A DNA stretch of 64,000 nucleotides from Escherichia coli. Lineage in GTDB: Bacteria > Pseudomonadota > Gammaproteobacteria > Enterobacterales > Enterobacteriaceae. The stretch lies in NCBI RefSeq assembly GCF_029227855.1, contig NZ_CP074356.1; one strand, written 5' to 3'. The translations under genes and the position numbers were made by a program. The notes beneath the pieces are model-generated. The model was given only the letters and a program-made list of their open reading frames with translations, ran no database searches and was not told the origin of the DNA. Below, one piece after another: positions 1,099-29,025 of the stretch; position 1 is the stretch's first letter; the number at the start of each line of letters is the position of its first letter.

Positions 1099-1770
1099 AT
1101 GCAGTACCCGATTAACGAGATGTTCCAGACCCTGCAAGGTGAGGGTTACTTTACCGGCGTCCCCGCTATTTTTATTCGTTTACAGGGATGCCCGGTCGGC
1201 TGTGCCTGGTGCGACACCAAACACACATGGGAAAAGCTTGAGGATCGGGAAGTTTCCCTTTTCAGCATTCTGGGTAAAACGAAAGAGAGTGATAAGTGGG
1301 GAGCAGCAAGCAGTGAAGACTTACTCGCAGTCATCGGTCGTCAGGGATACACCGCGCGTCACGTGGTGATTACGGGTGGTGAGCCTTGCATTCATGATTT
1401 GCTACCACTGACTGACCTGCTCGAAAAGAACGGTTTTAGCTGCCAGATCGAAACCAGTGGTACTCATGAAGTACGCTGCACACCGAATACCTGGGTTACC
1501 GTATCGCCAAAGCTGAACATGCGCGGCGGCTATGAAGTGTTGTCACAGGCACTGGAGCGAGCCAACGAAATCAAGCATCCAGTGGGACGCGTGCGTGATA
1601 TTGAAGCACTGGATGAACTACTGGCAACACTGACCGATGATAAACCGCGAGTCATTGCGCTGCAGCCGATTAGCCAAAAGGAAGATGCTACTCGTTTATG
1701 TATCGATACGTGCATTGCGCGCAACTGGCGTTTGTCGATGCAAACACATAAATATTTAAATATTGCCTGA
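1099..1770 (+). CDS. queE: 7-carboxy-7-deazaguanine synthase (radical SAM, queuosine pathway)
   Basis: 223-aa ORF MQYPINEMFQTLQGEGYFTGVPAIFIRLQGCPVGCAWCDT..., matching recalled QueE/YgcF; position between ygcG and the CRISPR leader as in K-12. Confidence 0.9.
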   Translation: MQYPINEMFQTLQGEGYFTGVPAIFIRLQGCPVGCAWCDTKHTWEKLEDREVSLFSILGKTKESDKWGAASSEDLLAVIGRQGYTARHVVITGGEPCIHDLLPLTDLLEKNGFSCQIETSGTHEVRCTPNTWVTVSPKLNMRGGYEVLSQALERANEIKHPVGRVRDIEALDELLATLTDDKPRVIALQPISQKEDATRLCIDTCIARNWRLSMQTHKYLNIA

Positions 1771-1779
1771 TTAAACATT

Positions 1780-2108
1780 TATAAGCGTTATAAATGGGTG
1801 GAACCTGTAAAGACTTCTACTCATTTATATTCTTTGTCGCCTCTAAAAAACCTCCATTTTGCCCATCCTGGACTAATCATTATCATTTTCTACAAATTCT
1901 GTGGCGTTAATTTTTCGTTGGAGTGAAAATTATTACGTCGGAGTTTGGTGGATTTTAGTCGGTATAGAATTACTTTAAATATTTGGCTTTTCAATCAATG
2001 AATTAAGTGCTCTTTAACATAATGGATGTGTTGTTTGTGTGTTTCTGTTAAGTTGGTAGATTGTGACTGACTTAAAAAATCAATAATTAATAATAGGTTA
2101 TGTTTAGT
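1780..2108 (+). promoter_or_regulatory. CRISPR leader of array 1 (AT-rich, contains GTTGGTAGATTGT box also present in the array 2 leader)
   Basis: About 330 bp AT-rich non-coding sequence directly upstream of the first repeat; the box TAAGTTGGTAGATTGTGACTG near 2049-2070 recurs at 28329-28350 upstream of array 2. Confidence 0.5.
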
Positions 2109-2686
2109 GAGTTCCCCGCGCCAGCGGGGATAAACCGATTTTGGTGGCGGGGGTGACTGGGGGAATACTGAGTTCCCCGCGCCAGCGGGGATAAACCGTC
2201 CGAGCGCGTAATAGCGCGCGCCCGGAAACAGAGTTCCCCGCGCCAGCGGGGATAAACCGCGGCACCAGGGCTGAAAGGCGGGGCCGCTAAAGAGTTCCCC
2301 GCGCCAGCGGGGATAAACCGGCCAGCGGCGCTGAGTACGACGACCTGATTAAGAGTTCCCCGCGCCAGCGGGGATAAACCGTCAATACAACAGCAATGCT
2401 GGAGCTGGAAAAAGAGTTCCCCGCGCCAGCGGGGATAAACCGGTACCGTTGAGCAATGGTGGGTAAATGGTGCTGAGTTCCCCGCGCCAGCGGGGATAAA
2501 CCGATTTAGATACGGCACACAGGAATGCGCTGGATGAGTTCCCCGCGCCAGCGGGGATAAACCGCATGGGAGTCCAGATTACAAATTCCAGAATGGGAGT
2601 TCCCCGCGCCAGCGGGGATAAACCGCGTTTAGCTCCGCAATGTTGGATATCACTGATGAGTTCCCCGCACCAGCGGGAATAAACCA
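2109..2686 (+). CRISPR. Type I-E CRISPR array (orphan, queE-ygcE intergenic), 9 spacers
   Basis: Nine 29-bp repeats GAGTTCCCCGCGCCAGCGGGGATAAACCG at a 61-bp period (2109, 2170 ... 2597) plus a degenerate terminal repeat at 2658-2686; nine unique 32-bp spacers; leader on the queE side sets orientation. Confidence 0.95.
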
Positions 2687-3140
2687 CCATATAACCCGTT
2701 ATCTCTTTCTCAAGTTTTTATATTAGCAGTACTCGTATTAAGCAACATATCCACGTAACACCTCATGTTCAAAATAGCTCTCCATATATGAGAAGTTCAC
2801 AATTATCGATACAAAAAATCAAATTTAATCAAAGTGTTATTTGTATAATCCTTAAACCGTTAAGAAATTTTAACATATTATTTTTTTAATATTAATTAAT
2901 GCCTGTTAATTTTTTCTTTAGAATAACAGTGTATTTTTTAAGCTTGTTATTCATTGATTAAGTAATAAATCTGGAAATTTGTCTTTGTTTTGAGGCTAAT
3001 GAGTGATTTTACATAATCGCCTCTATACGCTGTTGATGAATAGTTCTTATGAATAAAGATATCCAGTTCATACTTTAAGTGAAAATTGATAAAGTACGGT
3101 TCGCGTTGTCTTTTATTCTAAGGACATCGAGTGTAGTTAA

Positions 3141-3278
3141 TATTCCTTGTAAAAACAGGGATAAACCGAACTAGTTAAAGTTTTTATTATGTTCCCTGCA
3201 TCAGCGGGGATAAACCGGACTTGTTATCATTTTTTAAGTTGTCGAACTTATGTTCCCCGCGCCAGCGGGGATAACCAT
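3141..3278 (+). CRISPR. Degenerate CRISPR remnant (three decayed repeat copies, one 32-bp spacer)
   Basis: Repeat-like copies at about 3141-3168 (TATTCCTTGTAAAAACAGGGATAAACCG), 3189-3217 (ATGTTCCCTGCATCAGCGGGGATAAACCG) and 3250-3278 (ATGTTCCCCGCGCCAGCGGGGATAACCAT); the last two are separated by exactly 32 bp. Confidence 0.6.
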
Positions 3279-3323
3279 TCAGGTATGTTCAGGCCGGGCA
3301 GTTTCCCGCCCGGCCTTCCTCAC

Positions 3324-4802
3324 TTACGCATTCGACCAGCTCTGGATCGAATCCGCATTCCCCAATTCCCCATGCATCACTTCATACGATTTTTTCAGGA
3401 TTACATCAGTATGTTTGGTTAACTCCTTGAAAATGCCTTTATTCATCGCGTTGTAGCGTTTGGCGTTGCTCTCAACAGGCATAAAGATATCTTTCACGCG
3501 AACCATTTTGTCGACAGCCGTTGCGTAATCCGGGTATAGCCCCAGACCTACCGCCGTATTAATCGCTGCCCCCAGGCTTGCACAACCGTTAATGGCGTTA
3601 CGGCGTGCCGGAAGGTTGAACACGTCGGCAAAAATTTGCATAAACAGATCGCTGTTCGAACCGCCGCCAGTAATGATCACATGCTTTGCAAAGTGATTCA
3701 TTTCATGACACATATTGTCGTAATTGTTCTTCAGCGTCAGCGCCACGCTTTCCAGAATCGAACGATATATCCATGCGTAATCCATGCTGGAATCAAAGCC
3801 GATCATAATCCCGCGTTTGTACGGTTCCCACGGATTGGTCAGCCAGTCCAGCACCGTCATCAGACCATTACAGCCTGGCGGCACACAAGACGCTTTTTTG
3901 TTGAGTAAATCTTCCGGTGAAAGATCCTGCGCCCTGGCATCCTGAATTAACGACTCGCCTAGCATGTCGCGCAGCCAGCTCACCGTCCACATGCCTTTGC
4001 GAATACCGTAACCTTCATACAGCAATGTTTGCGGAATAGAAGACATAATCGGCCAGTACGCTACCGGATCTTTCGGCAGTGCTTTGCCGTTCATCATCAA
4101 CGCGATGTAAGTGCCAAGAGAAATTACCGCAGTTTCATCATCCAGTAACCCGGCTCCCAGTGCTTCTACCGGTTTATCACTGGTGGTACAAACAACCGGC
4201 AGCCCAGCTGGGAAATGTGTCGCCAGCGCGGCTTGAGGAGTGATATGCCCAAGAACAGTGCCCGGCATTTGCACATCAAACAGCATATGACGGGGGATAT
4301 TAAACTTCTCCATGACTGCGGCATCTTCACTCCATGCCCAGGTCTTATAATCCACCGGCCACTGACCAAAATAGTTGGCGATATTGTCTTTAAACTCGCC
4401 GGTTAAGCGATGCGTCAGATAACCTGAAAAAGAGGTGACATATGCCACGTCAGGATTCGTATGTTCGTAAGGGCGTGTAACGCGTGCATCCTGCCAGCTA
4501 ATCAACGGCGCAGCTGGCGTGCCATCGGCTTTCAATAACGCACGGCAGCAACGGATGGATCCCAGACCAATACCGACAATATCTTCTTTATTCCCGGCAA
4601 ACTGACTCATCAAATCGTGACCGGCAAAACATAATGATGCCCATAAATCGTCGTCAGGATGTTCTGCGGTATCGGCATCTGGCGTGTGCATCGGCTGCAA
4701 TAAGCCTTTGCCTTCGCAAACCACATTACCTTCCAGATCATACATCACCACTTTTGTGCTCTGACTTCCACCATCAATCCCTATGATGTATTTTTTCGAC
4801 AT
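3324..4802 (-). CDS. ygcE: FGGY-family carbohydrate kinase
   Basis: 492-aa ORF MSKKYIIGIDGGSQSTKVVMYDL...; glycerol/xylulose-kinase-like N-terminus; K-12 synteny (yqcE-ygcE pair). Confidence 0.85.
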   Translation of the reverse strand: MSKKYIIGIDGGSQSTKVVMYDLEGNVVCEGKGLLQPMHTPDADTAEHPDDDLWASLCFAGHDLMSQFAGNKEDIVGIGLGSIRCCRALLKADGTPAAPLISWQDARVTRPYEHTNPDVAYVTSFSGYLTHRLTGEFKDNIANYFGQWPVDYKTWAWSEDAAVMEKFNIPRHMLFDVQMPGTVLGHITPQAALATHFPAGLPVVCTTSDKPVEALGAGLLDDETAVISLGTYIALMMNGKALPKDPVAYWPIMSSIPQTLLYEGYGIRKGMWTVSWLRDMLGESLIQDARAQDLSPEDLLNKKASCVPPGCNGLMTVLDWLTNPWEPYKRGIMIGFDSSMDYAWIYRSILESVALTLKNNYDNMCHEMNHFAKHVIITGGGSNSDLFMQIFADVFNLPARRNAINGCASLGAAINTAVGLGLYPDYATAVDKMVRVKDIFMPVESNAKRYNAMNKGIFKELTKHTDVILKKSYEVMHGELGNADSIQSWSNA

Positions 4803-8827: not shown

Positions 8828-10165
8828 ATGAACACTTCACCGGTGCGAATGGATGATTTACCGCTTAACCGTTTTCACTGTCGAATTGCTGCGCTCACTT
8901 TCGGCGCGCACCTGACCGACGGTTATGTTCTCGGCGTCATTGGTTACGCCATTATTCAGCTTACGCCCGCCATGCAACTGACGCCGTTTATGGCGGGAAT
9001 GATTGGCGGCTCGGCGCTACTTGGCCTGTTTATCGGTAGCCTGGTTTTGGGGTGGATCTCCGACTATATTGGTCGGCAAAAAATCTTCACCTTCAGCTTT
9101 TTGCTGATTACGCTCGCTTCGTTCTTGCAATTTTTTGCCACCACTCCAGAGCATCTTATTGGACTACGCATTTTGATCGGCATTGGTCTGGGAGGCGATT
9201 ACTCAGTCGGTCACACCTTGCTGGCTGAATTTTCCCCGCGCCGCCATCGCGGTATTTTGCTTGGCGCATTCAGTGTGGTGTGGACCGTAGGCTATGTGCT
9301 GGCAAGTATTGCCGGACATCACTTTATTAGCGAAAGCCCGGAGGCCTGGCGCTGGCTGCTGGCATCAGCGGCGTTACCAGCCTTGCTGATTACGCTGCTA
9401 CGTTGGGGAACGCCAGAATCGCCACGCTGGCTACTGCGCCAGGGGCGTTTTGCAGAAGCTCACGCTATCGTGCATCGCTATTTTGGTCCCCATGTTTTAC
9501 TGGGCGATGAAGTGGCAACAGCGACCCATAAACACATCAAAACCTTGTTCTCTTCGCGCTACTGGCGGCGCACAGCGTTTAACAGCGTCTTCTTTGTCTG
9601 CCTAGTAATCCCATGGTTTGTGATTTATACCTGGCTGCCAACTATCGCCCAAACTATTGGTCTGGAAGATGCGCTGACCGCTAGCCTGATGCTTAATGCG
9701 TTGTTAATTGTGGGCGCGCTGCTGGGATTAGTTCTGACGCACCTGCTGGCACATCGCAAATTTTTGCTGGGAAGTTTTTTGTTGCTGGCGGCAACGCTGG
9801 TAGTAATGGCCTGTTTGCCTTCCGGCAGTTCATTAACGCTGCTGCTTTTTGTTCTCTTCAGCACCACCATTTCGGCAGTCAGTAATCTGGTGGGCATTTT
9901 GCCTGCGGAAAGTTTTCCTACTGACATTCGCTCGCTGGGCGTCGGTTTTGCCACCGCCATGAGTCGGTTGGGCGCGGCGGTAAGTACTGGCCTGCTGCCG
10001 TGGGTGCTGGCGCAGTGGGGAATGCAAGTCACCTTATTGCTCCTGGCGGCAGTGTTGTTGGTTGGTTTTGTCGTGACCTGGCTATGGGCACCAGAAACCA
10101 AAGCACTCCCGCTGGTGGCGGCGGGAAATGTTGGAGGTGCGAATGAACATTCTGTTAGCGTTTAA
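8828..10165 (+). CDS. ygcS: MFS-family transporter
   Basis: Track ORF 8735-10165; start at internal ATG with GAAGGGG RBS (MNTSPVRMDDLPLNRFHCRIAALTFGAH..., 445 aa); polytopic membrane protein. Confidence 0.8.
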   Translation: MNTSPVRMDDLPLNRFHCRIAALTFGAHLTDGYVLGVIGYAIIQLTPAMQLTPFMAGMIGGSALLGLFIGSLVLGWISDYIGRQKIFTFSFLLITLASFLQFFATTPEHLIGLRILIGIGLGGDYSVGHTLLAEFSPRRHRGILLGAFSVVWTVGYVLASIAGHHFISESPEAWRWLLASAALPALLITLLRWGTPESPRWLLRQGRFAEAHAIVHRYFGPHVLLGDEVATATHKHIKTLFSSRYWRRTAFNSVFFVCLVIPWFVIYTWLPTIAQTIGLEDALTASLMLNALLIVGALLGLVLTHLLAHRKFLLGSFLLLAATLVVMACLPSGSSLTLLLFVLFSTTISAVSNLVGILPAESFPTDIRSLGVGFATAMSRLGAAVSTGLLPWVLAQWGMQVTLLLLAAVLLVGFVVTWLWAPETKALPLVAAGNVGGANEHSVSV

Positions 10166-10922
10166 AGCCGAACCGGATGCCGGAATGCTGGCGGAAAAAG
10201 AGTGGCAGGCGGCGGCTCAGGGTAATAGCGGACCGGATGTTTCGCTTCTGCGAAGTTTGCTCGGTGCTGATGAACAGGCTGCCGCCGCGCTGCTGATGGC
10301 GCAGAGAAAAAACGGTACGTCGATGTCTTTAACCGCGTTGAGCATGGGGGATGAACGGGCGTTGCACTGGCTGCGCTATCTTATGGCTCTTGGGTTTGAG
10401 GAAGCTGTATTGCTGGAGACGGCGGCAGATCTGCGCTTTGCGCCGGAATTTGTCGCTCGCCATATTGCCGAATGGCAGAACCAGAATCCGCTGGAGCTGA
10501 TAATTACTGGCTGCCAAAGCAGCGAAGGGCAGAATGGGCAAACGCCATTTTTGCTGGCGGAAATGCTGGGCTGGCCCTGCTTCACCCAGGTGGAGCGTTT
10601 TACTCTCGACGCGCCGTTTATCACCCTTGAACAGCGTACTGAAAACGGGCTGCGCTGTTGCCGGGTTCGCTTGCCTGCGGTGATTGCCGTGCGTCAGTGC
10701 GGTGAAGTGGCCTTGCCAGTACCGGGAATGCGTCAGCGAATGGCGGCGGGGAAAGCAGCAATTATCCGTAAAACTGTTGCTGCCGAATCGCCAGCGATGC
10801 AGTGTCTGCAACTGGCAAGAGCAGAGCAACAACGCGGAGCGACGCTGATTGATGGGCAAACGGTAGCAGAAAAAGCGCAAAAGCTATGGCAGGACTATTT
10901 ACGCCAAAGGATGCAGCCATGA
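10143..10922 (+). CDS. ygcR: Electron-transfer flavoprotein beta-like subunit (FixA-like)
   Basis: Track ORF 10128-10922; start at ATG after GGAGGT RBS (MNILLAFKAEPDAGML...); ETF-beta family by recalled similarity. Confidence 0.8.
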   Translation: MNILLAFKAEPDAGMLAEKEWQAAAQGNSGPDVSLLRSLLGADEQAAAALLMAQRKNGTSMSLTALSMGDERALHWLRYLMALGFEEAVLLETAADLRFAPEFVARHIAEWQNQNPLELIITGCQSSEGQNGQTPFLLAEMLGWPCFTQVERFTLDAPFITLEQRTENGLRCCRVRLPAVIAVRQCGEVALPVPGMRQRMAAGKAAIIRKTVAAESPAMQCLQLARAEQQRGATLIDGQTVAEKAQKLWQDYLRQRMQP

Positions 10923-11870: not shown

Positions 11871-11925
11871 GGATGTTGCGTGCAGCCTACAAATCACACA
11901 AATTCAACTCGTTACGAGTATCCCG

Positions 11926-19174: not shown

Positions 19175-19279
19175 GCGAGCAGCATTCCTGATTTTAAACG
19201 TGAACGCCGCTGGAAGAATTATCAGGTATAGAATGGCGTTGGGTGCTTGAGGCTGTCTGGCGTTAAGCATTCGCGAGGT

Positions 19280-19343
19280 TCCAGATGGACAAAAGCCCCA
19301 GGCGATATTTCTATCAACCTGAGGCCAGCGTTCGAACCTAAGC
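19280..19343 (-). ncRNA. Candidate Sok-type antisense RNA (sokX-like) opposite the hokX leader
   Basis: Minus-strand promoter-like elements TTGCCT (complement of 19374-19379), 17-bp spacer, TAACAT (complement of 19351-19356) overlapping the hokX SD/ATG, as in hok/sok loci; a weak hairpin plus U-run near 19280. Extent is approximate. Confidence 0.3.
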
Positions 19344-19382
19344 AATTCGAATGTTAGTCTCTTCTTTGCAGGGAGGCAAGAC

Positions 19383-19535
19383 ATGCTGACAAAATATGCC
19401 CTTGTGGCAATCATCGTACTGTGTTGTACAGTACTGGGATTCACGCTGATGGTAGGCGACTCGTTGTGTGAGTTGAGTATCAGAGAACGTGGTATGGAGT
19501 TTAAGGCAGTTCTCGCTTACGAATCGAAGAAGTAG
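19383..19535 (+). CDS. hokX: Hok-family small membrane toxin (type I toxin-antitoxin)
   Basis: 50-codon [53 protein letters not shown] with GGGAGG RBS 6 nt upstream; hydrophobic helix plus conserved Hok/Gef C-terminal pattern; below the ORF-track size cut-off. Confidence 0.75.
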
Positions 19536-19729: not shown

Positions 19730-22360
19730 ATGCGTAAATATCCTTTAAGTTTACTGAAGGATAAAAATATTGTGACTTTTTTTGATTTCTGGGGAAAAAC
19801 CCGACGCGGCGAGAAAGACGGGGGCGACGACTATCACCTTCTTTGCTGGCATTCGCTGGATGTAGCCGCGATGGGCTATTTAATGGTTAAAAGCAATTGC
19901 TTCGGGCTGACTGACTATTTTCGTCAACTAGGTTTCGCTGATACGGAGCAGGCAGCACAATTTTTCGCCTGGCTATTGTGCTGGCACGATACTGGAAAAT
20001 TTGCCCGCTCTTTTCAGCAACTTTACCTGCACCCACAACTCAAGGTTCCGGAAGGCGCAAGAAAGAATTACGAAAAGATCTCTCATTCAACGCTGGGCTA
20101 CTGGCTGTGGCATCATTATTTAAGTGAATACGAAGAATTGCTTCCTTCATCTTCACTCTCTCCGCGCAAACTTAAACGGGTGATGGAGATGTGGATGCCC
20201 ATGACTACCGGGCATCATGGTCGGCCCCCTGACCGTATTGATGAACTGGATAATTTTCTGCCTGAAGACAAAGCTGCCGCACGAGATTTTCTCCTTGAAA
20301 TCAAGGTACTGTTTCCGCTCATCGAGATCCCCGCATTCTGGGATGATGACGAGGGCATTGAACTTTTAAAACAACTTTCCTGGTATATCTCTGCAACCGT
20401 CGTACTCGCAGACTGGACGGGATCGTCAACGCGGTTTTTTCCACGCGTTGCACAGGCAATGGATATTAAAGATTACTGGCAGAAGGCTTTAGTTCAGGCT
20501 CAAAACGCCTTAACCGTCTTTCCTCCAAAAGCACAAACCGCGCCTTTCACCGGAATTAATACGCTGTTTCCTTTTATTGAGCACCCGACACCGTTACAGC
20601 AAAAGGTGCTGGATCTGGATATCAGCCAGCCTGGGCCACAGTTATTTATTCTGGAGGATGTGACTGGCGCAGGTAAAACAGAAGCGGCGCTTATCCTGGC
20701 CCACAGGTTGATGGCTGCGGGGAAAGCACAGGGTTTGTTTTTTGGCCTGCCAACAATGGCAACGGCCAATGCCATGTACGATCGGCTGGTAAAAACCTGG
20801 CTTGCTTTCTATTCGCCAGAATCCCGCCCCAGCCTGGTGCTGGCACACAGTGCCCGCACATTAATGGACCGCTTTAATGAATCACTCTGGTCCGGTGATT
20901 TAGTCGGGTCAGAAGAACCGGATGAACAAGCGTTCAGTCAGGGATGTGCGGCCTGGTTTGCCGACAGTAACAAGAAGGCGTTGCTGGCTGAAATTGGCGT
21001 CGGCACGCTGGATCAGGCGATGATGGCGGTGATGCCGTTTAAACATAATAATCTGCGGCTTCTGGGACTGAGTAACAAAATCCTGCTGGCTGATGAGATC
21101 CATGCCTGTGACGCTTACATGTCGTGCATTCTTGAAGGATTGATTGAGCGGCAGGCGCGTGGAGGAAACAGCGTTATTTTGCTTTCTGCCACGTTATCTC
21201 AACAGCAGCGCGACAAACTCGTTGCTGCCTTTGCGCGTGGTGCAGAGGGCCAGCAAGAAGCTCCGTTCCTGGAAAAGGATGATTACCCCTGGCTGACGCA
21301 CGTTACGAAATCGGATGTGCATTCACACCGGGTAGCAGCGCGCAAAGACGTTGAGCGTAGCGTGAGCGTGGGTTGGCTTCATAGCGAACAAGAGTGTATT
21401 GCGCGTATCGAATCGGCGGTAAGTCAGGGGAAATGCATCGCCTGGATCCGGAATTCTGTCGATGATGCTATTAAAGTTTATCGTCAGTTACTTGCCCGCG
21501 GCGTCATTCCTGCTTCCAGCCTTTCTCTTTTTCATAGCCGCTTTGCTTTTAGCGATCGCCAGCGAATTGAAACGGAAACGCTGGCACGCTTTGGTAAAGA
21601 AGATAGCTCACAGCGTGCCGGAAAAGTCCTCATTTGTACTCAGGTCTTAGAGTCGAGCGTTGATTGCGATATGGACGAAATGATTTCCGACCTTGCCCCC
21701 ATTGATTTGCTGATCCAGCGAGCGGGGCGATTACAGCGACATATCCGCGATATTAATGGTCAGTTAAAGCGTGACGGAAAAGACGAGCGTTCCCCTCCTG
21801 AATTGCTGATTCTGGCCCCCGTCTGGGACGACGCTCCAGGTGACGAATGGTTCGGCAGTGCCATGCGTAACAGTGCATATGTCTATCCCGATCATGGACG
21901 AATCTGGCTGACGCAGCGTGTACTGCGTGAGCAAGGCGCTATTCAAATGCCACACGCAGCCCGCCTTCTTATTGAATCAGTCTACGGTGAGGACGTGGTA
22001 ATGCCGGAAGGATTTGCCCGCAGCGAGCAGGAACAAGTGGGCAAATATTACTGCGATCGCGCAATGGCTAAAAAGTTTGTGCTGAACTTTAGGCCCGGCT
22101 ATGCCGCCAATATCAACGATTACCTCCCGGAAAAACTGTCGACACGTCTGGCTGAGGAGTCTGTTTCCCTGTGGCTGGCTACCTGTATTGCCGGTGTGGT
22201 GAAGCCTTATGCCAACGGTGCTCACGCATGGGAAATGAGCGTTGTCAGAGTGCGTCGAAGCTGGTGGAAAAACATCGGGATGAGTTTTCTTTACTGGAAG
22301 GGGAAGCGTTCAGGCAGTGGTGCATTGAACAGCGGAAAGATCCGGAGATGGCAAACGTGA
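19730..22360 (+). CDS. cas3: Cas3 HD-nuclease/helicase (type I-E); 3' end apparently frameshifted, with the conserved C-terminus continuing in the +1 frame to 22428
   Basis: 876-aa ORF with HD region (LLCWHSLDVAAMGYL...), DExH helicase motifs (GAGKTEAAL, LLADEIHACD). The last ~36 codons are low-complexity and basic, while ORF 22171-22428 in another frame encodes a tail resembling the K-12 Cas3 C-terminus. An in-frame GTG at 19772 is an alternative start. Confidence 0.85.
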   Translation: MRKYPLSLLKDKNIVTFFDFWGKTRRGEKDGGDDYHLLCWHSLDVAAMGYLMVKSNCFGLTDYFRQLGFADTEQAAQFFAWLLCWHDTGKFARSFQQLYLHPQLKVPEGARKNYEKISHSTLGYWLWHHYLSEYEELLPSSSLSPRKLKRVMEMWMPMTTGHHGRPPDRIDELDNFLPEDKAAARDFLLEIKVLFPLIEIPAFWDDDEGIELLKQLSWYISATVVLADWTGSSTRFFPRVAQAMDIKDYWQKALVQAQNALTVFPPKAQTAPFTGINTLFPFIEHPTPLQQKVLDLDISQPGPQLFILEDVTGAGKTEAALILAHRLMAAGKAQGLFFGLPTMATANAMYDRLVKTWLAFYSPESRPSLVLAHSARTLMDRFNESLWSGDLVGSEEPDEQAFSQGCAAWFADSNKKALLAEIGVGTLDQAMMAVMPFKHNNLRLLGLSNKILLADEIHACDAYMSCILEGLIERQARGGNSVILLSATLSQQQRDKLVAAFARGAEGQQEAPFLEKDDYPWLTHVTKSDVHSHRVAARKDVERSVSVGWLHSEQECIARIESAVSQGKCIAWIRNSVDDAIKVYRQLLARGVIPASSLSLFHSRFAFSDRQRIETETLARFGKEDSSQRAGKVLICTQVLESSVDCDMDEMISDLAPIDLLIQRAGRLQRHIRDINGQLKRDGKDERSPPELLILAPVWDDAPGDEWFGSAMRNSAYVYPDHGRIWLTQRVLREQGAIQMPHAARLLIESVYGEDVVMPEGFARSEQEQVGKYYCDRAMAKKFVLNFRPGYAANINDYLPEKLSTRLAEESVSLWLATCIAGVVKPYANGAHAWEMSVVRVRRSWWKNIGMSFLYWKGKRSGSGALNSGKIRRWQT

Positions 22361-22525
22361 TTTTAGTTACCGATGACGAAAGTTGCGGGTATTCGGCTAT
22401 GGAAGGATTGACTGGCAAGGTTGGTTGAGATGCCTGCGACAGGGCTCTCTGAATAGTTGATACACCGAAAAGGATGGAATGATGGACAACCGACCTGGGA
22501 TGGTCTTTTTTACGAGAGGATGCGT

Positions 22526-24088
22526 ATGAACTCGTTTTCACTTCTGACAACCCCGTGGTTGCCCGTTCGTTATAAAGACGGAACGACAGGCAAACTGGCG
22601 CCTGTCGATCTGGCGGATGAAAATGTTGTCGATATTGCTGCGCCACGGGCAGATCTCCAGGGAGCGGCATGGCAGTTTTTGCTGGGGCTACTACAAACCA
22701 GCTTTGCGCCAAAAGATCATCGTCGTTGGGATGATATCTGGGAAGACGGACTGGAATCTGAAAAGCTACGGGAAGCATTGCTGTCCTTAGAACACGCTTT
22801 CCAGTTTGGGCCAGATTCCCCTTCATTTATGCAGGATTTCGAGGCGCTCACAGGAGATAAAGTTCAGGTCGCTTCGCTACTGCCTGAGATTCCCGGCGCT
22901 CAAACAACGAAGTTTAATAAAGACCACTTTATCAAGCGTGGTGTAACGGAATACCTGTGCCCACATTGTTCTGCGTTAGCTCTGTTCTCCCTACAGTTAA
23001 ATGCGCCGTCAGGTGGTAAAGGCTACCGCACCGGTTTACGCGGCGGTGGGCCGATGACCACTCTGATTGAATTACAGGAATATCAGGGCAATCAACAAAC
23101 GCCCTTGTGGCGCAAACTGTGGCTCAATGTGATGCCGCAGGACGAAGCCGACTTACCGCTACCCAAAAAATTTGACGATCTGGTTTTCCCCTGGCTTGGC
23201 CCGACGCGTACCAGCGAACTGGCCGGTGCGGTGGTAACCGATGATCAGGTTAATAAACTCCAGGCGTACTGGGGAATGCCGCGGCGTATTCGTATTGATT
23301 TTAATACCACGACAGTCGGCAACTGCGATATTTGCGGCGAGCAGAACGACGCGCTCCTGAGCCTGATGACGACCAAAAATTACGGCGCGAATTATGCCAT
23401 GTGGCAGCATCCCTTAACGCCTTACCGTGTACCCCTTAAAGAGGGCGGCGAGTTTTACTCGGTCAAACCACAACCAGGCGGTTTAATCTGGCGCGACTGG
23501 TTAGGCCTTATCGAAACGGGTAAATCAGAAAACAATACGGAACTTCCCGCGCTGGTGGTGAAACTCTTTAATGCCAGCAGTCTCAAGCAGGCAAAAGTGG
23601 GCCTATGGGGATTTGGTTATGATTTTGACAACATGAAAGCGCGCTGTTGGTACGAACACCATTTCCCGCTACTGCTCAATAAAAAAGAAGGCCAGATACC
23701 GAAGCTGCGGCTGGCTGCGCAAACGGCTTCACGGATTCTGAGTCTGTTACGGAGTGCATTGAAAGAAGCATGGTTCTCCGATCCAAAAGGTGCAAGGGGT
23801 GATTTCAGTTTTGTGGATATCGACTTCTGGAACAAAACTCAGCATCGCTTCCTGAGGTTAGTGCGCCAAATTGAAGAAGGTCAGGATGCGGATGAATTAC
23901 TCGGCAAATGGCAAAAGGAAATTTGGTTATTCGCGCGTCAGGATTTTGACGAGCGTGTATTCACTAATCCTTATGAGCCCGTTGATTTGAAACGCGTCAT
24001 GACCGCGCGCAAGAAATATTTTACAACATCGGCGGAGAAGCAAAGTGCTAAAGCCGCCAGGGAGAAAAAGCAGGAGGCTGCTGAATGA
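22526..24088 (+). CDS. casA: Cascade large subunit Cse1 (CasA)
   Basis: Track ORF 22457-24088; start placed at the ATG 6 nt after a GAGAGG RBS (MNSFSLLTTPWLPVRYKDG..., 520 aa), matching the N-terminal pattern of K-12 CasA. Confidence 0.85.
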   Translation: MNSFSLLTTPWLPVRYKDGTTGKLAPVDLADENVVDIAAPRADLQGAAWQFLLGLLQTSFAPKDHRRWDDIWEDGLESEKLREALLSLEHAFQFGPDSPSFMQDFEALTGDKVQVASLLPEIPGAQTTKFNKDHFIKRGVTEYLCPHCSALALFSLQLNAPSGGKGYRTGLRGGGPMTTLIELQEYQGNQQTPLWRKLWLNVMPQDEADLPLPKKFDDLVFPWLGPTRTSELAGAVVTDDQVNKLQAYWGMPRRIRIDFNTTTVGNCDICGEQNDALLSLMTTKNYGANYAMWQHPLTPYRVPLKEGGEFYSVKPQPGGLIWRDWLGLIETGKSENNTELPALVVKLFNASSLKQAKVGLWGFGYDFDNMKARCWYEHHFPLLLNKKEGQIPKLRLAAQTASRILSLLRSALKEAWFSDPKGARGDFSFVDIDFWNKTQHRFLRLVRQIEEGQDADELLGKWQKEIWLFARQDFDERVFTNPYEPVDLKRVMTARKKYFTTSAEKQSAKAAREKKQEAAE

Positions 24089-24621
24089 GTATTGTAAAAG
24101 AGGAGCACAAAGCCACGCTGCGTAAATGGCACGAAGAGTTGCAGGAAAAACGCGGCAATCGTGCCAGTCTGCGGCGTAGCACAACGGTTAATGATGTTTG
24201 TCTGTCAGAAGGGTTTCGTTCTCTGCTGATGCAGACCCACACGTTGTGGAAAATTGAATCACAGGAGTGGCGTTTTACCGCACTGGCGCTGGTTGCCGCC
24301 GTTGCCGCCAATGTAAAAGCCATTGATGAACGGCAGCCTTTTGCCGCGCAGTTGGCGGCGGTAATGTCTGAGGGGCGTTTTACTCGCCTGTCGGCAGTCA
24401 AAACGCCGGATGAATTACTGCGCCAGTTACGTCGCGCGGTCAAATTATTAAATGGTTCCGTCAATCTTATCTCTTTGGCAGACGATATTTTCCGCTGGTG
24501 CCAGGAGAGCGACGATCTGCTCAATCATCACCGCCGCCAGCAGCGGCCAACAGAATTTATCCGTATCCGCTGGGCGCTGGAATATTACCAGGCTGGCGAC
24601 GCCGATAACGAACAAAATTAA
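24085..24621 (+). CDS. casB: Cascade small subunit Cse2 (CasB)
   Basis: 178-aa ORF MSIVKEEHKATLRKWHEELQEKRGNRASLRR...; overlaps the casA stop; position in the cascade operon. Confidence 0.85.
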   Translation: MSIVKEEHKATLRKWHEELQEKRGNRASLRRSTTVNDVCLSEGFRSLLMQTHTLWKIESQEWRFTALALVAAVAANVKAIDERQPFAAQLAAVMSEGRFTRLSAVKTPDELLRQLRRAVKLLNGSVNLISLADDIFRWCQESDDLLNHHRRQQRPTEFIRIRWALEYYQAGDADNEQN

Positions 24622-24635
24622 TAAAGGACTATCTC

Positions 24636-25691
24636 ATGACGACATTTATTCAGCTTCATTTGTTAACCGCTTACCCTGCTGCCAACCTTAACCGTGATGA
24701 CACCGGTGCGCCAAAAACTGTGGTACTGGGTGGAGCAACGCGTCTGCGCGTTTCCTCACAAAGTCTGAAACGTGCGTGGCGCACTTCTGCACTTTTTGAA
24801 CAGGCACTGGCGGGCCATATTGGTATTCGCAGTGGGCGTATTGCGCGTGAGGCGGCAACTATCCTGATTGAGAAAGGCATCGAAGAGAAAAAAGCCATCG
24901 AATGGGCGGCAAAAATTGCGGATTATCTTGGGAAAGCTAAAAACGACAAAAAACCAAAAGATCCGCTCACTAACGCCGAAACTGAACAGCTAGTCCATAT
25001 CAGCCCGGCAGAATTTGACGCCGTAAAAGCGCTGGCCCATCAACTGGCCGAAGAAAAGCGCGCGCCAAAAGAGGAAGATCTCGCTTTGTTACGTAAAGAT
25101 CGCATGGCGGTAGATATCGCTATGTTTGGTCGTATGCTGGCGAATAAACCCGAATTTAATGTTGAAGCCGCCTGCCAGGTCGCGCATGCATTTGGTGTCA
25201 GTGAAACGATTGTCGAAGATGATTTTTTCACCGCCGTTGATGATTTGCGCCAGGCTTCTGAAGATGCCGGTGCCGGGCATCTTGGTGAAACCGGATTCGG
25301 TTCTGCGCTGTTCTACACCTATATCTGCATCGATAAAGATCTGCTGGTCGAAAACCTCGGCGGTGACGAAGCGTTAGCTAATCAGACCTTGCGCGCCTTT
25401 ACGGAAGCCGCACTTAAAGTCTCCCCAACCGGCAAACAGAACAGCTTTGCCAGCCGTGCCTACGCCTCCTGGGCGCTGGCAGAAAAAGGCACTGAACAAC
25501 CACGCTCTCTGGCGGCGGCTTTCTATGAACCCATTAATGGCACCCGGCAGTTAGATGTGGCGGTGCAGCGTATTACAACGCTTCGCGAAAATATGAATAC
25601 GGTCTATGAACAGAAGACCGAATGCGCAAGCTTTGACGTGATGAACAAACAGGGAAGCATGAAGGACGTGCTGGACTTTATCTGCGCGTAA
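24636..25691 (+). CDS. casC: Cascade backbone subunit Cas7e (CasC)
   Basis: 351-aa ORF MTTFIQLHLLTAYPAANLNRDDTGAPKTVVLGGATRLRVSSQSLKRAWR... Confidence 0.9.
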   Translation: MTTFIQLHLLTAYPAANLNRDDTGAPKTVVLGGATRLRVSSQSLKRAWRTSALFEQALAGHIGIRSGRIAREAATILIEKGIEEKKAIEWAAKIADYLGKAKNDKKPKDPLTNAETEQLVHISPAEFDAVKALAHQLAEEKRAPKEEDLALLRKDRMAVDIAMFGRMLANKPEFNVEAACQVAHAFGVSETIVEDDFFTAVDDLRQASEDAGAGHLGETGFGSALFYTYICIDKDLLVENLGGDEALANQTLRAFTEAALKVSPTGKQNSFASRAYASWALAEKGTEQPRSLAAAFYEPINGTRQLDVAVQRITTLRENMNTVYEQKTECASFDVMNKQGSMKDVLDFICA

Positions 25692-25701
25692 GGGGCGGCT
25701 A

Positions 25702-26448
25702 ATGAGCCAATATTTGATTTTTCAGCTTCATGGGCCAATGGCATCCTGGGGCGTCGATGCCCCCGGCGAAGTGCGTCATACCCATGAACTGCCTTCGCGC
25801 TCAGCATTGCTGGGGCTGCTGGCTGCCGGGGTAGGGATTCGGCGTGATGATACCGAACGATTAAACGTGTTTAACCGCCACTATTCACTGGTGGTTTGCG
25901 CCAGCCGTAACCCGCGCTGGGCACGGGATTATCACACAATCCAGATGCCAAAAGAGGTGCGTAAAGCGCGTTATTTCAGCCGTCGCGAAGAGTTGAGCGA
26001 CCCTGATCTTCTGAGCGCGATTATCTCCCGGCGCGACTACTACACCGACGCCTGGTGGATGGTGGCGGTGGCAACAACAGCCGATGCGCCTTACAGCCTC
26101 GAACAGTTGCAGGGCGGTTTACGCCATCCAGTTTTTCCTCTTTATCTGGGGCGAAAAAGTCATCCGCTGGCGTTACCACTTGCGCCGTTACTGCTCGAAG
26201 GCAACGCGTCTGATGTCTTACGTAACGCATACCAACAGTATCAGGATAGTTTCCGCGAACTGAAAGTCTCACTCCCGAAACTTCAGGATGAATGCTGGTG
26301 GGAAGGGGAACACGACGGCCTGGTCGCGAGCAAAATATTACGTCGCCGGGATGTTCCTTTAAATCGTCAGCAGTGGCTGTTTGGGGAACGCACCATCAAT
26401 CAGGGGCCGTGGCTCAGCAAGGAGGAACCATGTACCTCTCAAGAATAA
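25702..26448 (+). CDS. casD: Cascade subunit Cas5e (CasD)
   Basis: 248-aa ORF MSQYLIFQLHGPMASWGVDAPGEVRHT...; same N-terminal pattern as K-12 CasD (MRSYLILRLAGPMQAWG). Confidence 0.9.
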   Translation: MSQYLIFQLHGPMASWGVDAPGEVRHTHELPSRSALLGLLAAGVGIRRDDTERLNVFNRHYSLVVCASRNPRWARDYHTIQMPKEVRKARYFSRREELSDPDLLSAIISRRDYYTDAWWMVAVATTADAPYSLEQLQGGLRHPVFPLYLGRKSHPLALPLAPLLLEGNASDVLRNAYQQYQDSFRELKVSLPKLQDECWWEGEHDGLVASKILRRRDVPLNRQQWLFGERTINQGPWLSKEEPCTSQE

Positions 26449-27076
26449 CCTTACATACCGGCCAGCTTTCGCCTGCGCAGTTGCTGCATCTGGTGGATCG
26501 CGGTGAATATGTAATGCATCAGTGGCTGTGGGATCTTTTTCCTGGCGGCAAAGAAAGGCAATTTCTTTATCGTCGGGAAGAACTCCTGGGGGCGTTTCGC
26601 TTTTTTGTCCTGTCGCAGGAACGCCCGGCGGAAAATGATATTTTCACCATCGAATGCCGACCATTTGCGCCAGAGTTGCGTACCGGACAATCCCTTTGTT
26701 TCAACCTGCGGGCGAATCCAACAATTTGTAAAGCGGGCAAACGCCACGACTTGCTGATGGAGGCGAAACGGCAGGTGAGGGGGCAGGTGGAAGGAAGTGA
26801 TGTCTGGTTGCATCAACAACAGGCGGCGCTGGACTGGCTGGCAGCGCAGGGGGAAAGAAGCGGTTTTACACTACTGGATACCTCGGTCGATGCCTACCGA
26901 CAACAGCAACTGCGGCGGGAAAACTCCCGGCAACTGATCCAGTTCAGTAGCGTGGATTATACGGGGATGCTTACGGTCACCGATCCTGGGTTATTTCTGC
27001 AACGTCTGAGCCAGGGGTATGGCAAAAGCCGCGCGTTCGGCTGTGGTCTGATGCTGATCAAACCCGGAGCAGAGGC

Positions 27077-27080
<4 letters not shown>
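26430..27080 (+). CDS. casE: crRNA endoribonuclease Cas6e (CasE)
   Basis: Track ORF 26292-27080; start at ATG after AGGAGG RBS (MYLSRITLHTGQLSPAQLLHLVDRGEYVMHQWLWDLFPG..., 216 aa); C-terminal GCGLM-type motif. Confidence 0.85.
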
Positions 27081-28290
<1,210 letters not shown>

Positions 28291-28386
28291 GTTATCTGTT
28301 CTTTAAAAATAAGGAAATGTTTTAATTTAGTTGGTAGATTGTTGATGCGGAATAAATTTGTTTAAAAACAGTTATGTATGCTTAGT
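28291..28386 (+). promoter_or_regulatory. CRISPR leader of array 2 (AT-rich, GTTGGTAGATTGT box)
   Basis: 96-bp AT-rich spacer between the cas2 stop and the first repeat; box TTTAGTTGGTAGATTGTTGATG shared with the array 1 leader. Confidence 0.5.
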
Positions 28387-29025
28387 GTGTTCCCCGCGCC
28401 AGCGGGGATAAATCGAGATCACCGTGTTAAATAACCGATTGAACGCCGTGTTCCCCGCGCCAGCGGGGATAAATCGGCCAGGCCAATACAGTTGGCGAAG
28501 AAGCGAAGGTGTTCCCCGCGCCAGCGGGGATAAATCGACACCGGGCTGGATAAAAAAACTATCGGGAAAGTGTTCCCCGCGCCAGCGGGGATAAATCGCC
28601 GTTTGATAGCTGTTCACGCTGGCTGATGCCGTGTTCCCCGCGCCAGCGGGGATAAACCGCGCAGTTCGCTACCGAGCGTGGTTTGCTGGTCGTGTTCCCC
28701 GCGCCAGCGGGGATAAACCGGCGCACAGCGACGCGAAATCAACGAAAATTTAGTGTTCCCCGCGCCAGCGGGGATAAACCGATTGCCAGATACTGTGTAT
28801 ATCCACCGACTAAGTGTTCCCCGCGCCAGCGGGGATAAACCGCAGGGAAACCGTTCGTACTTATCGACCTCAACGTGTTCCCCGCGCCAGCGGGGATAAA
28901 CCGAAGGGGACGGCTACGGGACGCCGCCTATTGATGTGTTCCCCGCGTCAGCGGGGATAAACCGGACGCACTGGATGCGATGATGGACATCACTTGGAGT
29001 TCCCCGCCCCTGCGGTAGAACTCCC
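28387..29025 (+). CRISPR. Type I-E CRISPR array (cas-associated), 10 spacers
   Basis: Ten 29-bp repeats at a 61-bp period (28387 ... 28936) plus a degenerate terminal repeat at 28997-29025; ten unique 32-bp spacers. Repeats 1-4 end AAATCG, repeats 5-10 end AAACCG. Confidence 0.95.

Follow-up and report, generated by a model that had tools for sequence, protein, structure and literature searches.

The stretch between queE and ygcE in this Escherichia coli strain is the published E. coli CRISPR-II locus, real but ordinary. Array 1 is CRISPR2.3, with leader 2.3 ahead of it, and the three-repeat remnant beyond it is CRISPR2.2, which is catalogued in the literature. We read the two jointly, array 1 as a working distal array and the degenerate copies as a fossil trailer end, and give this reading a probability of about 0.92. 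It draws on anatomy, synteny, conservation of the leader, an intact cas operon, protospacers whose PAMs fit the system and a fossil that is the same across the species, all of which were directly observed.

The CRISPR-II locus and the resident cas genes

The whole layout is already known, with CRISPR2.1 beside the cas genes and with CRISPR2.3 and CRISPR2.2 between ygcE and queE; the architecture and the names are those of PMC3903273 and PMC4489801. In the window, by which we mean the whole 64-kb stretch of DNA that was analysed, the gene order queE-array-ygcE...cysJIH-sokX-cas3...cas2-array-iap is as in K-12 MG1655, and other genomes have a RefSeq 'CRISPR' annotation at the corresponding place. 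The upstream flanking gene is queE (ygcF; 1099..1770, + strand; NCBIfam TIGR04322 QueE, E=1.8e-110). The downstream one is ygcE (3324..4802, - strand), which encodes an FGGY-family sugar kinase in an ORF of 492 aa and is 96.5% identical in nucleotides to K-12 ygcE; both names are those that RefSeq gives at homologous loci. Immediately beyond the ygcE stop codon lies a GC-rich hairpin, GGCCGGGC...GCCCGGCC (3292..3315), read from the sequence and kept in E. coli and E. albertii, which is probably the ygcE terminator. A consensus scan for promoters and terminators gave nothing above shuffled expectation, and an Rfam scan of 1700-3400, at gathering thresholds and at permissive E-values, found no CRISPR or sRNA family.

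Array 1 occupies 2109..2686 on the + strand. A Hamming scan finds ten repeats of 29 nt, the first starting at 2109 and the last at 2658 with a 61-nt period, and hence nine distinct 32-nt spacers, the number that the earlier note had given. Nine of the ten repeats are identical to GAGTTCCCCGCGCCAGCGGGGATAAACCG, and the terminal one (2658-2686) has three mismatches. The canonical repeat folds as a 7-bp stem with a 4-nt loop, at -15.1 kcal/mol for the array 1 repeat (z=-3.6). The note had also said that the two arrays differ at the second repeat nucleotide while sharing their stems, and this holds: GAG repeats in array 1 and GTG repeats in array 2 form the same hairpin, each at -15.1 kcal/mol. 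The difference is the published CRISPR-T/CRISPR-A repeat polymorphism (PMC3737337). K-12 CRISPR2.3 has in common with array 1 the flanking genes, the orientation, the 29-nt type-2 repeat, the 32-nt spacers and a degenerate terminal repeat ending ...ATAAACCA and followed by CCATATAACCCG. Its repeats are GTG, however, whereas those of array 1 are GAG (CRISPR-T), and besides the repeat variant only the spacer content differs. When set against the published CRISPR-A/CRISPR-T and cas-EO/cas-EK (E1/E2) variants (PMC3737337, PMC3903273), array 2 is GTG (type A) beside a non-K-12 cas set, whereas CRISPR2.3 carries the other repeat variant. Since GAG and GTG arrays occur here in one strain, the two arrays need not match at that position.

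The cas operon (19730..28290, + strand) is complete and of a non-K-12 variant, running cas3, cse1, cse2, cas7, cas5, cas6e, cas1, cas2; each of the eight ORFs passes the cut-off of its NCBIfam type I-E model. Identity to K-12 is 25-38% for Cas3 and the Cascade proteins and 84-85% for Cas1 and Cas2. Leader 2.1 and array 2, which together are CRISPR2.1, follow at 28291..29025 (+ strand), with ten GTG-type repeats at 28387-28964 and a degenerate terminal copy at 28997-29025. The published distance between CRISPR2.3 and CRISPR2.1 is roughly 24-26 kb (PMC4489801).

Is array 1 then an orphan, as the earlier note called it? Its neighbours are queE and ygcE, no cas gene adjoins it, and 17,043 bp lie between its end and the start of cas3, so that the note was right to place it 17 kb from the cas operon. 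The name is apt by position, and by position only, because the window also contains a complete type I-E operon that is cognate to it; in the strict sense, in which the genome of an orphan array holds no cognate cas genes, array 1 is not an orphan. The array 1-type locus has been treated as part of the type I-E system (PMC3903273), and we take array 1 for a second array of the resident system, at a distance from its cas genes, and not for a dead orphan.

Leader 2.3, spacers and the probable working of array 1

An AT-rich leader, leader 2.3 (1771..2108, + strand; GC 0.30-0.35), lies upstream of array 1 and has been described before (PMC3903273, PMC3737337). It is 90.8% identical to the K-12 intergenic region between queE and CRISPR-II, and has conserved blocks in common with the array 2 leader, for example AGTTGGTAGATTGT; the view that array 1 has a leader of its own is borne out on both counts. 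One hundred nucleotides upstream of the first repeat is a boxA-like element, GCTCTTTAACAT (2009..2020, + strand), with 11 of 12 matches to GCTCTTTAACAA; the array 2 counterpart, GTTCTTTAAAAA, is weaker and lies 89 nt upstream of its first repeat. By analogy, the element at 2009..2020 would serve in antitermination. Closer to the array, the IHF-site-like AATCAATAATTAA (2078..2090, + strand; leader positions -31 to -19) has one mismatch to WATCAANNNNTTR and falls within the region from -9 to -35 reported as the IHF region of the K-12 leader (PMC10011333). From this likeness we infer an IHF role for AATCAATAATTAA in leader 2.3. A sigma-70 consensus scan of leader 2.3 gave nothing above shuffled expectation.

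Salmonella CRISPR-II offers a close parallel (PMC7665894). It too is a distal type I-E array immediately 3' of queE, it is transcribed and boxA-protected, and in both loci the first repeat is preceded, at a distance of about 80-100 nt, by a boxA-like element. The function of boxA was shown in Salmonella, whereas the element of array 1 is known from its sequence, and no CRISPR2.2-type fossil has been described in Salmonella.

How might an array so far from the cas genes work? Leader 2.3 would supply the promoter region, the boxA-like antitermination element and IHF-type signals for integration. Cas1-Cas2, encoded 17 kb away, would add spacers at the leader end; Cas6e would cut the array 1 transcript at the conserved repeat hairpin, and the resulting crRNAs would load into Cascade and direct Cas3 at phage DNA. 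Array 1 would need no adjacent cas genes, because all of these proteins would act in trans on the shared 29-nt repeat. Transcription of array 1, processing by Cas6e, Cascade loading and current acquisition are what the K-12 and Salmonella literature would lead one to expect. K-12 CRISPR-II gains spacers during priming (10.1101/2020.02.10.942821), and one of its spacers directs the binding of Cascade (PMC5904413). K-12 CRISPR-II is, however, poorly transcribed and under repression by H-NS (PMC5904413); in the laboratory, the contribution of array 1 may therefore be small.

The spacers speak to the history of the array. The earlier note proposed that they be searched against phage and plasmid sequence, and three of the nine have a target: s3 (2260-2291; protospacer 31/32, AAG PAM), s5 (2382-2413; 32/32, ATG PAM) and s7 (2504-2535; 32/32, AAG PAM) match phage tail-protein or tail-fibre genes on IMG/VR contigs whose sole GenBank relatives are Escherichia phages. 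The three protospacers are on one strand, within 1.7 kb. The first IMG/VR match of s3 (23/32, no PAM) was set aside as chance, and the true protospacer was found afterwards. AAG and ATG both fit AWG (CWT), the motif at which the non-K-12 cas-E variant is reported to acquire spacers (PMC3737337), and that variant is the one encoded here. The other six spacers matched nothing in INPHARED phages, PLSDB plasmids or IMG/VR; in IMG/VR, pattern scans demanding an exact match at 20 or more positions were empty for s1, s2, s4, s6 and s8. BLAST of all 21 spacers found nothing among INPHARED phages, and in PLSDB found only chromosomes mislabelled as plasmids and one IncHI2A plasmid. We note that this plasmid carries a chromosomal cas1-cas2-CRISPR-iap block.

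Within the species, spacers s1-s8 matched only CRISPR arrays in 5,426 E. coli genomes, among the 60 matches listed; prophage self-targets may occur among 153 further records. All the leader-proximal spacers are common to just one of the 5,426 genomes, and likewise one genome holds all nine together, whereas s9, at the trailer end, is found again in at least two more of the examined strains (AR_0137 and JNEC-KY178). Strain-specific leader-proximal spacers together with a recurring s9 give the polarity that is expected with acquisition at the leader end.

One might think that array 1 is instead a dead relic, no longer transcribed, processed or extended, and kept because it is harmless. Its distance of 17 kb from the cas genes would fit, as would the lack of a known target for most of its spacers. 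K-12 CRISPR-II is weakly expressed and has a small share in Cascade binding (PMC5904413), and H-NS generally keeps the type I-E system of E. coli silent (PMC10011333). A relic, however, would not be expected to look as array 1 does, with nine of ten repeats perfect, a leader conserved along with its motifs, and an intact cas operon to serve it. The eight leader-proximal spacers are almost private to the lineage and so point to turnover since divergence. Three spacers directed at one phage region, with PAMs appropriate to the variant and a one-strand bias like that of primed adaptation, argue in the same direction, and the homologous K-12 array is a routine target of acquisition (10.1101/2020.02.10.942821). 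We regard a dead array as very improbable.

The CRISPR2.2 repeats and their origin

About 0.5 kb downstream of CRISPR2.3, and adjoining ygcE, are three degenerate repeats on the + strand. Repeat A (ATATTCCTTGTAAAAACAGGGATAAACCG, 3140..3168) has 11 mismatches to the consensus; it keeps the canonical 3' handle and forms its hairpin via U-A and U-G pairs. It is followed by the 20-nt psi-spacer 1 (AACTAGTTAAAGTTTTTATT, 3169..3188, + strand), which is identical in every inspected strain and matches the start of psi-spacer 2 at 12 of 20 positions (P about 0.04). Repeat B (ATGTTCCCTGCATCAGCGGGGATAAACCG, 3189..3217) and repeat C (ATGTTCCCCGCGCCAGCGGGGATAACCAT, 3250..3278) each have five mismatches, and between them is the 32-nt psi-spacer 2 (GACTTGTTATCATTTTTTAAGTTGTCGAACTT, 3218..3249, + strand), identical in every strain that has it. 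Copies A and B have 20 nt between them; copies B and C lie 61 nt from start to start, which leaves 32 nt for a spacer. The earlier note had described just this, three degenerate copies on the ygcE side of array 1 with 32 bp between two of them.

Are these copies genuine repeats, or a chance likeness to the repeat in intergenic DNA? For copy A alone chance would suffice: only its 3' handle aligns to the repeat profile (E=8.6, not significant), and about three stretches with 11 or fewer mismatches, the number in copy A, are expected by chance in the window. Copies B and C stand against that reading, with E=9.2e-6 and E=1.1e-6 respectively for a profile built from canonical repeats only and searched over the whole window. 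Copies B and C thus align to the repeat consensus, and copy A, by its own score, does not do so significantly. Other evidence bears on copy A. An exact GGGATAAACCG in it stands 49 nt ahead of copy B (P about 5e-5), it folds into the canonical 7-bp stem and 4-nt loop, and its sequence is the same in all other examined strains. Over 46 positions, units A and B agree at 34 (P about 1e-7, with 100 offsets allowed for). This evidence supports the view that copy A is a genuine degenerate repeat. All three copies fold like the canonical repeat, the spacing of B and C is exactly that of a repeat-spacer unit, the remnant has the orientation of array 1, and the copies are catalogued as CRISPR2.2 (PMC4489801). 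Chance resemblance is scarcely credible; the profile E-values and the match between units A and B refute it.

Among 5,426 complete E. coli genomes, 4,155 carry CRISPR2.2. In the comparison of the ygcE-queE region across strains, which the earlier note had proposed, the fossil sequence proved to be that of K-12 bar one position in the loop of copy C, with both psi-spacers identical. The published CRISPR2.2 (PMC4489801, PMC3903273) has three degenerate type-2 repeats and two invariable spacers about 0.5 kb 3' of CRISPR2.3, and nothing of substance differs here. A decayed array, as that note had it, is right as to the degenerate trailer copies, but the decay is neither recent nor strain-specific, the remnant being a fossil fixed species-wide.

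The ...GGGGATAACCAT repeat of copy C also lies right against the ygcE terminator in E. albertii and in E. coli strains with a single array, and by this likeness copy C is evidently the ancestral terminal repeat of the locus. We propose that CRISPR2.2 would be the fossilised trailer end of an ancestral array, with copy C as its original degenerate terminal repeat and units A and B as old trailer units, which a 453-bp AT-rich segment now separates from the leader-driven array. With no apparent leader next to CRISPR2.2, spacer gain would no longer be possible there. The segment (2687..3139; GC 0.20-0.28), which lies between CRISPR2.3 and CRISPR2.2, is hypervariable among strains in its 5' half and is absent from the single-array E. 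coli strains and E. albertii. No further decayed repeats were found in it, and no leader-like sequence adjoins copy A. Its best likeness to leader 2.3 is 29 nt at 2813-2841 (z=3), about 300 bp from copy A; for a second leader, this score is marginal and the position wrong. A scan of contigs from 100,044 species representatives for the unit A/B pattern gave 0 matches, and a leader-motif contig scan of species representatives returned E. albertii alone.

Low diversity of CRISPR2.2

CRISPR2.2 is some ten-fold less polymorphic than its flanks and than synonymous sites. Among nine diverse strains, two of 140 columns vary in the remnant, against 47 of 453 upstream and eight of 62 downstream. Between this strain and K-12 the remnant differs at one of 139 positions, against 9-16% of third codon positions in ygcE and queE (Poisson P about 3e-5). 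The remnant is at least 99% identical in 3,424 of the 4,155 genomes, against mostly 90-95% for an AT-rich control segment. With polymorphism this low, a simple 'neutral fossil' view of CRISPR2.2 falls short; we found no discussion of the matter in the papers that we read.

Might CRISPR2.2 then be a maintained functional element, kept by purifying selection? Psi-spacer 2 could be a species-wide crRNA-like guide for Cascade, acting in self-recognition or, in the manner of CreA or CreR, in regulating a chromosomal gene through partial complementarity; or a structural element, of RNA or of DNA, could be made up of the three hairpins where the CRISPR2.3 and ygcE transcripts converge at their ends. 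Beyond the low diversity itself, such a role would fit the canonical hairpin kept in all three copies, and the build of psi-spacer 2, which is 32 nt long and lies between a 5' handle of canonical form and a 3' hairpin that is perfect; if it were transcribed, the product would be a crRNA competent for Cascade. Type I-E loci are known to contain regulatory mini-arrays built in this way (10.1101/2023.03.03.530964; 10.1101/2023.03.10.532045). Like CRISPR2.2, these mini-arrays (CreA of CreTA; CreR; Shmakov et al. 2023) have degenerate repeats around an invariant spacer-like sequence, with the hairpin retained. CRISPR2.2 has repeats flanking a conserved spacer, as they do, but in the 64-kb window it has no target match and no adjacent cas gene or toxin, and, unlike them, it has neither a conserved promoter nor proximity to the cas operon.

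The points against function are several. Psi-spacer 2 has no PAM-plus-seed target above chance in the window, all cas promoters and both leaders included (seven seed matches against about eight expected, none at a cas promoter or leader), so that a target of the CreTA or CreR type was rejected there; a search of phages (INPHARED), plasmids (PLSDB) and the window found none. CRISPR2.2 is 16,451 bp from cas3, outside the cas locus. No conserved small ORF or toxin adjoins it, small ORFs being found in the hypervariable part only, and its sole consensus-like promoter site (2990-3017) reads CATAAC in other strains. No covariation is seen among the rare natural variants, one of which breaks the stem of copy B; in one O157:H7 strain, unit B is deleted outright. 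Retention of the copy A stem has P about 0.16 under transition-only decay, and with no covariation besides, compensatory changes in copy A were rejected as a sign of selection at the RNA level. Strains without cas genes keep CRISPR2.2 (PMC3737337). The low-diversity block reaches about 150 bp upstream of the repeats and its variation is haplotype-structured; a recombinational sweep accounts for the block equally well. On balance we consider a maintained function unlikely, whether as guide or as structure, and prefer to see CRISPR2.2 as the fossil trailer end.

What does the locus say about type I-E systems in E. coli? Its layout is that of the textbook two-locus system and matters little in itself. 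Spacers s3, s5 and s7 are natural evidence that the non-K-12 variant system feeds the distal array, possibly through priming. The low polymorphism of CRISPR2.2 would matter if it came from a conserved crRNA-like function.

The CRISPR-II locus and the distant cas genes

The window is a segment of the Escherichia coli chromosome with the gene order queE (1099-1770, + strand), array 1, ygcE (3324-4802, - strand), the yqcE-ygc genes, queD, cysJIH, a sok-like RNA, cas3 through cas2 (19730-28290, + strand), array 2 and iap, which is the order of K-12 MG1655 on the opposite strand. The type I-E components of E. coli are split between CRISPR-I (iap-cysH), with the CRISPR2.1 array and eight cas-E genes, and CRISPR-II (ygcE-ygcF), with either one array (CRISPR2.2-3) or two (CRISPR2.2 and CRISPR2.3, 0.5 kb apart); leaders lie next to CRISPR2.1 and CRISPR2.3 (Almendros et al., PMC3903273). 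The region studied here is the published CRISPR-II locus, whose CRISPR2.3 and CRISPR2.2, with known A/T repeat variants, have already been described. Direct comparison of K-12 MG1655, AR_0137 and JNEC-KY178 confirms this identification with the locus of Almendros et al. and Garcia-Gutierrez et al. The factual elements of the earlier note, which described an orphan array and a decayed remnant far from cas, are all in place at the coordinates it gave, and its reading of them is supported; the end of array 1 lies 17,043 bp from the cas3 start codon.

All eight type I-E cas genes are intact, with end-to-end matches to NCBIfam models. Identity to the K-12 proteins is only 25-38% for Cas3 and Cascade, and 84-85% for Cas1 and Cas2. 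The operon is the non-K-12 type I-E variant, the cas-EO or E1 set. That set is linked to type-A (GTG) CRISPR2.1 repeats (PMC3737337, PMC3903273), and here, as in the literature, the ten repeats of array 2 (CRISPR2.1, 28387-28964) beside the cas-EO/E1 genes are GTG-type. The GAG versus GTG difference between the arrays, to which the earlier note drew attention, is real and is the known CRISPR-T/CRISPR-A polymorphism (Diez-Villasenor et al., PMC3737337).

Several further features of the region were observed. The cas3-cse1 gap is about 97 bp, versus 414 bp in K-12, leaving scant space for a K-12-type Pcas regulatory region. In array 2, the four leader-proximal repeats end in ...GATAAATCG and the six older ones in ...GATAAACCG, as expected if a first-repeat mutation was passed on with every subsequent acquisition; the repeat ends would then document three or more insertions since the mutation. 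The conjugative IncHI2A plasmid pIOMTU792 (NZ_LC542972.1, 245437-248468) carries a chromosomal cas1e-cas2e-CRISPR-iap block, in which one spacer is the same as the oldest of array 2; part of the CRISPR-I locus has thus been captured by a plasmid. A sok antitoxin RNA (Rfam RF01794, 111.7 bits), a hok/sok-type remnant or module, lies at 19241-19398 between cysH and cas3, directly upstream of cas3 and in the position of sokX in K-12. There is a full-length match to the Hfq-binding sRNA STnc490 (RF01405, 146 bits) at 40166-40289, and three copies of a 24-nt tandem repeat (CAGCTCAGCAACCGCAAATTCAGCCGGTACAGC-like) lie at 38101-38181, presumably within a coding region. Of the two genes flanking the locus, queE is markedly more diverged from K-12 (nucleotide identity only 94.2%; 37 of 224 third codon positions differ, and only 2 first or second positions) than ygcE (96.5%).

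Three degenerate repeats and their origin

Array 1 is followed by a 453-bp AT-rich segment (2687-3139, GC 0.20-0.28) and then by three more repeat copies in the same orientation: copy A (3140-3168, 11 mismatches), copy B (3189-3217, 5 mismatches) and copy C (3250-3278, 5 mismatches), with gaps of 20 nt between A and B and 32 nt between B and C. These are the three degenerate copies toward ygcE, two of them 32 nt apart, of the earlier note. Are they true repeats? A profile of canonical repeats only, run over the whole 64-kb window, finds copy C at E=1.1e-6 and copy B at E=9.2e-6, and outside the arrays nothing else better than E of about 1; formal alignment, set beforehand as a possible refutation, left the remnant standing. 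Copy A alone is not significant, as the profile aligns only its 3' handle (E=8.6), and chance alone would yield about three stretches with no more than 11 mismatches. Copy A carries an exact GGGATAAACCG 49 nt upstream of copy B (P about 5e-5), and unit A, the copy plus the sequence after it, agrees with unit B in 34 of 46 positions (P about 1e-7, 100 offsets allowed). It folds into a 7-bp stem and 4-nt loop in exactly the register of the canonical repeat, and shows no variation among other strains. Given these four properties, copy A is real. Further decayed copies were sought in the AT-rich interval, and none was found.

The same three degenerate repeats and the same two remnant 'spacers', AACTAGTTAAAGTTTTTATT and GACTTGTTATCATTTTTTAAGTTGTCGAACTT, are present in K-12 MG1655, AR_0137 and JNEC-KY178, and K-12 differs from the window at one base, in the copy C loop. 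Of 5,426 complete E. coli genomes, 4,155 contain the 139-bp remnant, 3,424 of them at 99% identity or more. The strain comparison of the ygcE-queE region proposed earlier reveals a shared structure, and 'decayed array' describes it fairly, provided the decay is understood to be ancient and its product now fixed.

What was the ancestral arrangement? In the single-array strains AH04 and EC21GDE043 the array ends GAG...GGGGATAACCAT, directly on the ygcE terminator hairpin; B2 strains are reported to retain nothing more than a two-repeat CRISPR2.2-3 of this kind (PMC2941450). The E. albertii type strain shares the leader, has three degenerate repeats, and ends in the ...GGGGATAACCAT terminal repeat on the same terminator; the 0.5-kb AT-rich segment and units A and B are absent from it. 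Because the single-array E. coli strains and E. albertii share this terminal repeat on the ygcE terminator, copy C is the ancestral degenerate terminal repeat of the locus. The E. albertii array (NBRC 107761; L021, reverse strand, about 10134-10382) has only the three degenerate repeats (GGGTTCCCCGCGTTAGCGGGG...) and two spacers after its leader, and looks as though it is decaying.

Units A and B are old trailer units, divided from the leader-driven array by the AT-rich segment. The stretches that follow copies A and B, psi-spacer 1 (3169-3188, 20 nt) and psi-spacer 2 (3218-3249, 32 nt), agree in 12 of 20 positions (P about 0.04), a hint of unit duplication. The junction ...ATAAACCA CCATATAACCCG is identical in all two-array strains, indicating that the split arose once. 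Single-array forms could come from repeat-to-repeat deletion, which would account for the hybrid terminal repeat, with GAG at its 5' end and ATAACCAT at its 3' end. The O157:H7 strain Show KS 470-1 lacks exactly 61 bp (alignment columns 531-591), that is, unit B with its one repeat and 32-nt psi-spacer; this is a clean repeat-to-repeat deletion in an otherwise 'invariable' mini-array.

Low diversity of the remnant

The fossil carries much less polymorphism than the DNA on either side of it. Nine strains picked across the identity range vary at 2 of 140 columns in the remnant, as against 47 of 453 columns of the AT-rich segment and 8 of the 62 that lie downstream. When the window is compared with K-12, 1 of 139 remnant positions is different, versus 46 of 493 third codon positions in ygcE and 37 of 224 in queE (Poisson P about 3e-5). 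In most genomes the remnant reaches 99% identity or more; for a 139-bp control taken within the AT-rich segment, identity is mostly 90-95%. The low-diversity block spans 2987-3278, the CRISPR2.2 fossil plus about 150 bp upstream; by contrast, the stretch at about 2760-2960 is hypervariable and indel-rich, and third-position divergence from K-12 is 9-16% in ygcE and queE.

Is the remnant functional? Psi-spacer 2 lies between a canonical 5' handle and a perfect hairpin, so that it would suit Cascade as a guide if transcribed, and regulatory mini-arrays of like build are known (10.1101/2023.03.03.530964). A polymorphism far below that of the flanks is in keeping with such a role. We nevertheless consider it improbable. 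PAM-plus-seed targets in the window do not exceed chance, and neither a conserved promoter nor an adjacent small gene was found. The rare natural variants show no covariation, one of them disrupts a stem, and unit B can be lost, as in the O157:H7 strain. The low-diversity block, moreover, reaches 150 bp past the repeats, and its variation is haplotype-structured; a recombinational sweep is an adequate alternative.

Array 1 as a distal array

In a Hamming scan with the consensus, the 29-nt repeat GAGTTCCCCGCGCCAGCGGGGATAAACCG recurs in ten copies with a period of exactly 61 nt (first start 2109, last 2658); nine are perfect and the last has 3 changes. They enclose nine distinct 32-nt spacers, s1 at the leader end to s9 at the trailer end, confirming the nine-spacer array reported earlier. 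The array also has its own leader, as claimed: its identity to the K-12 CRISPR-II leader is 90.8%, and it has sequence blocks in common with the array 2 leader. A boxA-like GCTCTTTAACAT, matching boxA at 11 of 12 positions, lies 100 nt upstream of the first repeat, and a weaker version lies 89 nt upstream of array 2. In Salmonella both arrays, one of them the CRISPR-II array downstream of queE, have a functional boxA 77-78 bp upstream (Stringer et al., PMC7665894). An IHF-consensus-like site at -31 to -19 falls within the region reported for K-12 (PMC10011333).

The trailer spacer s9 occurs in at least two other examined strains, AR_0137 and JNEC-KY178. Among the 5,426 genomes, JNEC-KY178 alone combines the eight leader-proximal spacers; it is also the only one to share all nine, and is 100% identical to the window over 2690-3323. 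This is the polarity of an array that acquires spacers at its leader end. JNEC-KY178 has one additional repeat-spacer unit between s8 and s9 (relative to window 2597-2657), so a unit was lost or gained in the meantime; since AR_0137 has the same extra spacer, it is the window lineage that lost an internal unit.

The spacer search suggested earlier gave a divided answer. BLAST turned up no real protospacer among INPHARED phages or PLSDB plasmids, and IMG/VR pattern scans recovered protospacers for s3 (2260-2291), s5 (2382-2413) and s7 (2504-2535). On the phage contig L020, s7 matches 32/32 (11878-11909, PAM AAG), s3 31/32 (10174-10205, PAM AAG) and s5 30/32 (10845-10876, PAM ATA); on a relative, L018, s5 matches 32/32 (13016-13047, PAM ATG). 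The three L020 protospacers lie on a single strand within 1.7 kb (L020:10174-11909), in the genes for a tail protein (phrog_52) and a tail fibre (phrog_13714), and the GenBank relatives of L020 are Escherichia phages only. Primed adaptation produces one-strand clustering of this sort on a single phage, and the pattern is consistent with priming. An AWG (CWT) acquisition motif has been shown experimentally for the non-K-12 variant, K-12 using AAG only (PMC3737337), and the AAG and ATG PAMs of the array 1 protospacers make up this AWG (CWT) motif.

The K-12 homologue of array 1 gains spacers during priming (10.1101/2020.02.10.942821); it is weakly transcribed under H-NS repression, and one spacer still drives detectable Cascade binding (PMC5904413). 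The cas genes of the window serve array 1, and we infer that array 1 is a working distal array, which would be transcribed, processed and used for interference in this strain.
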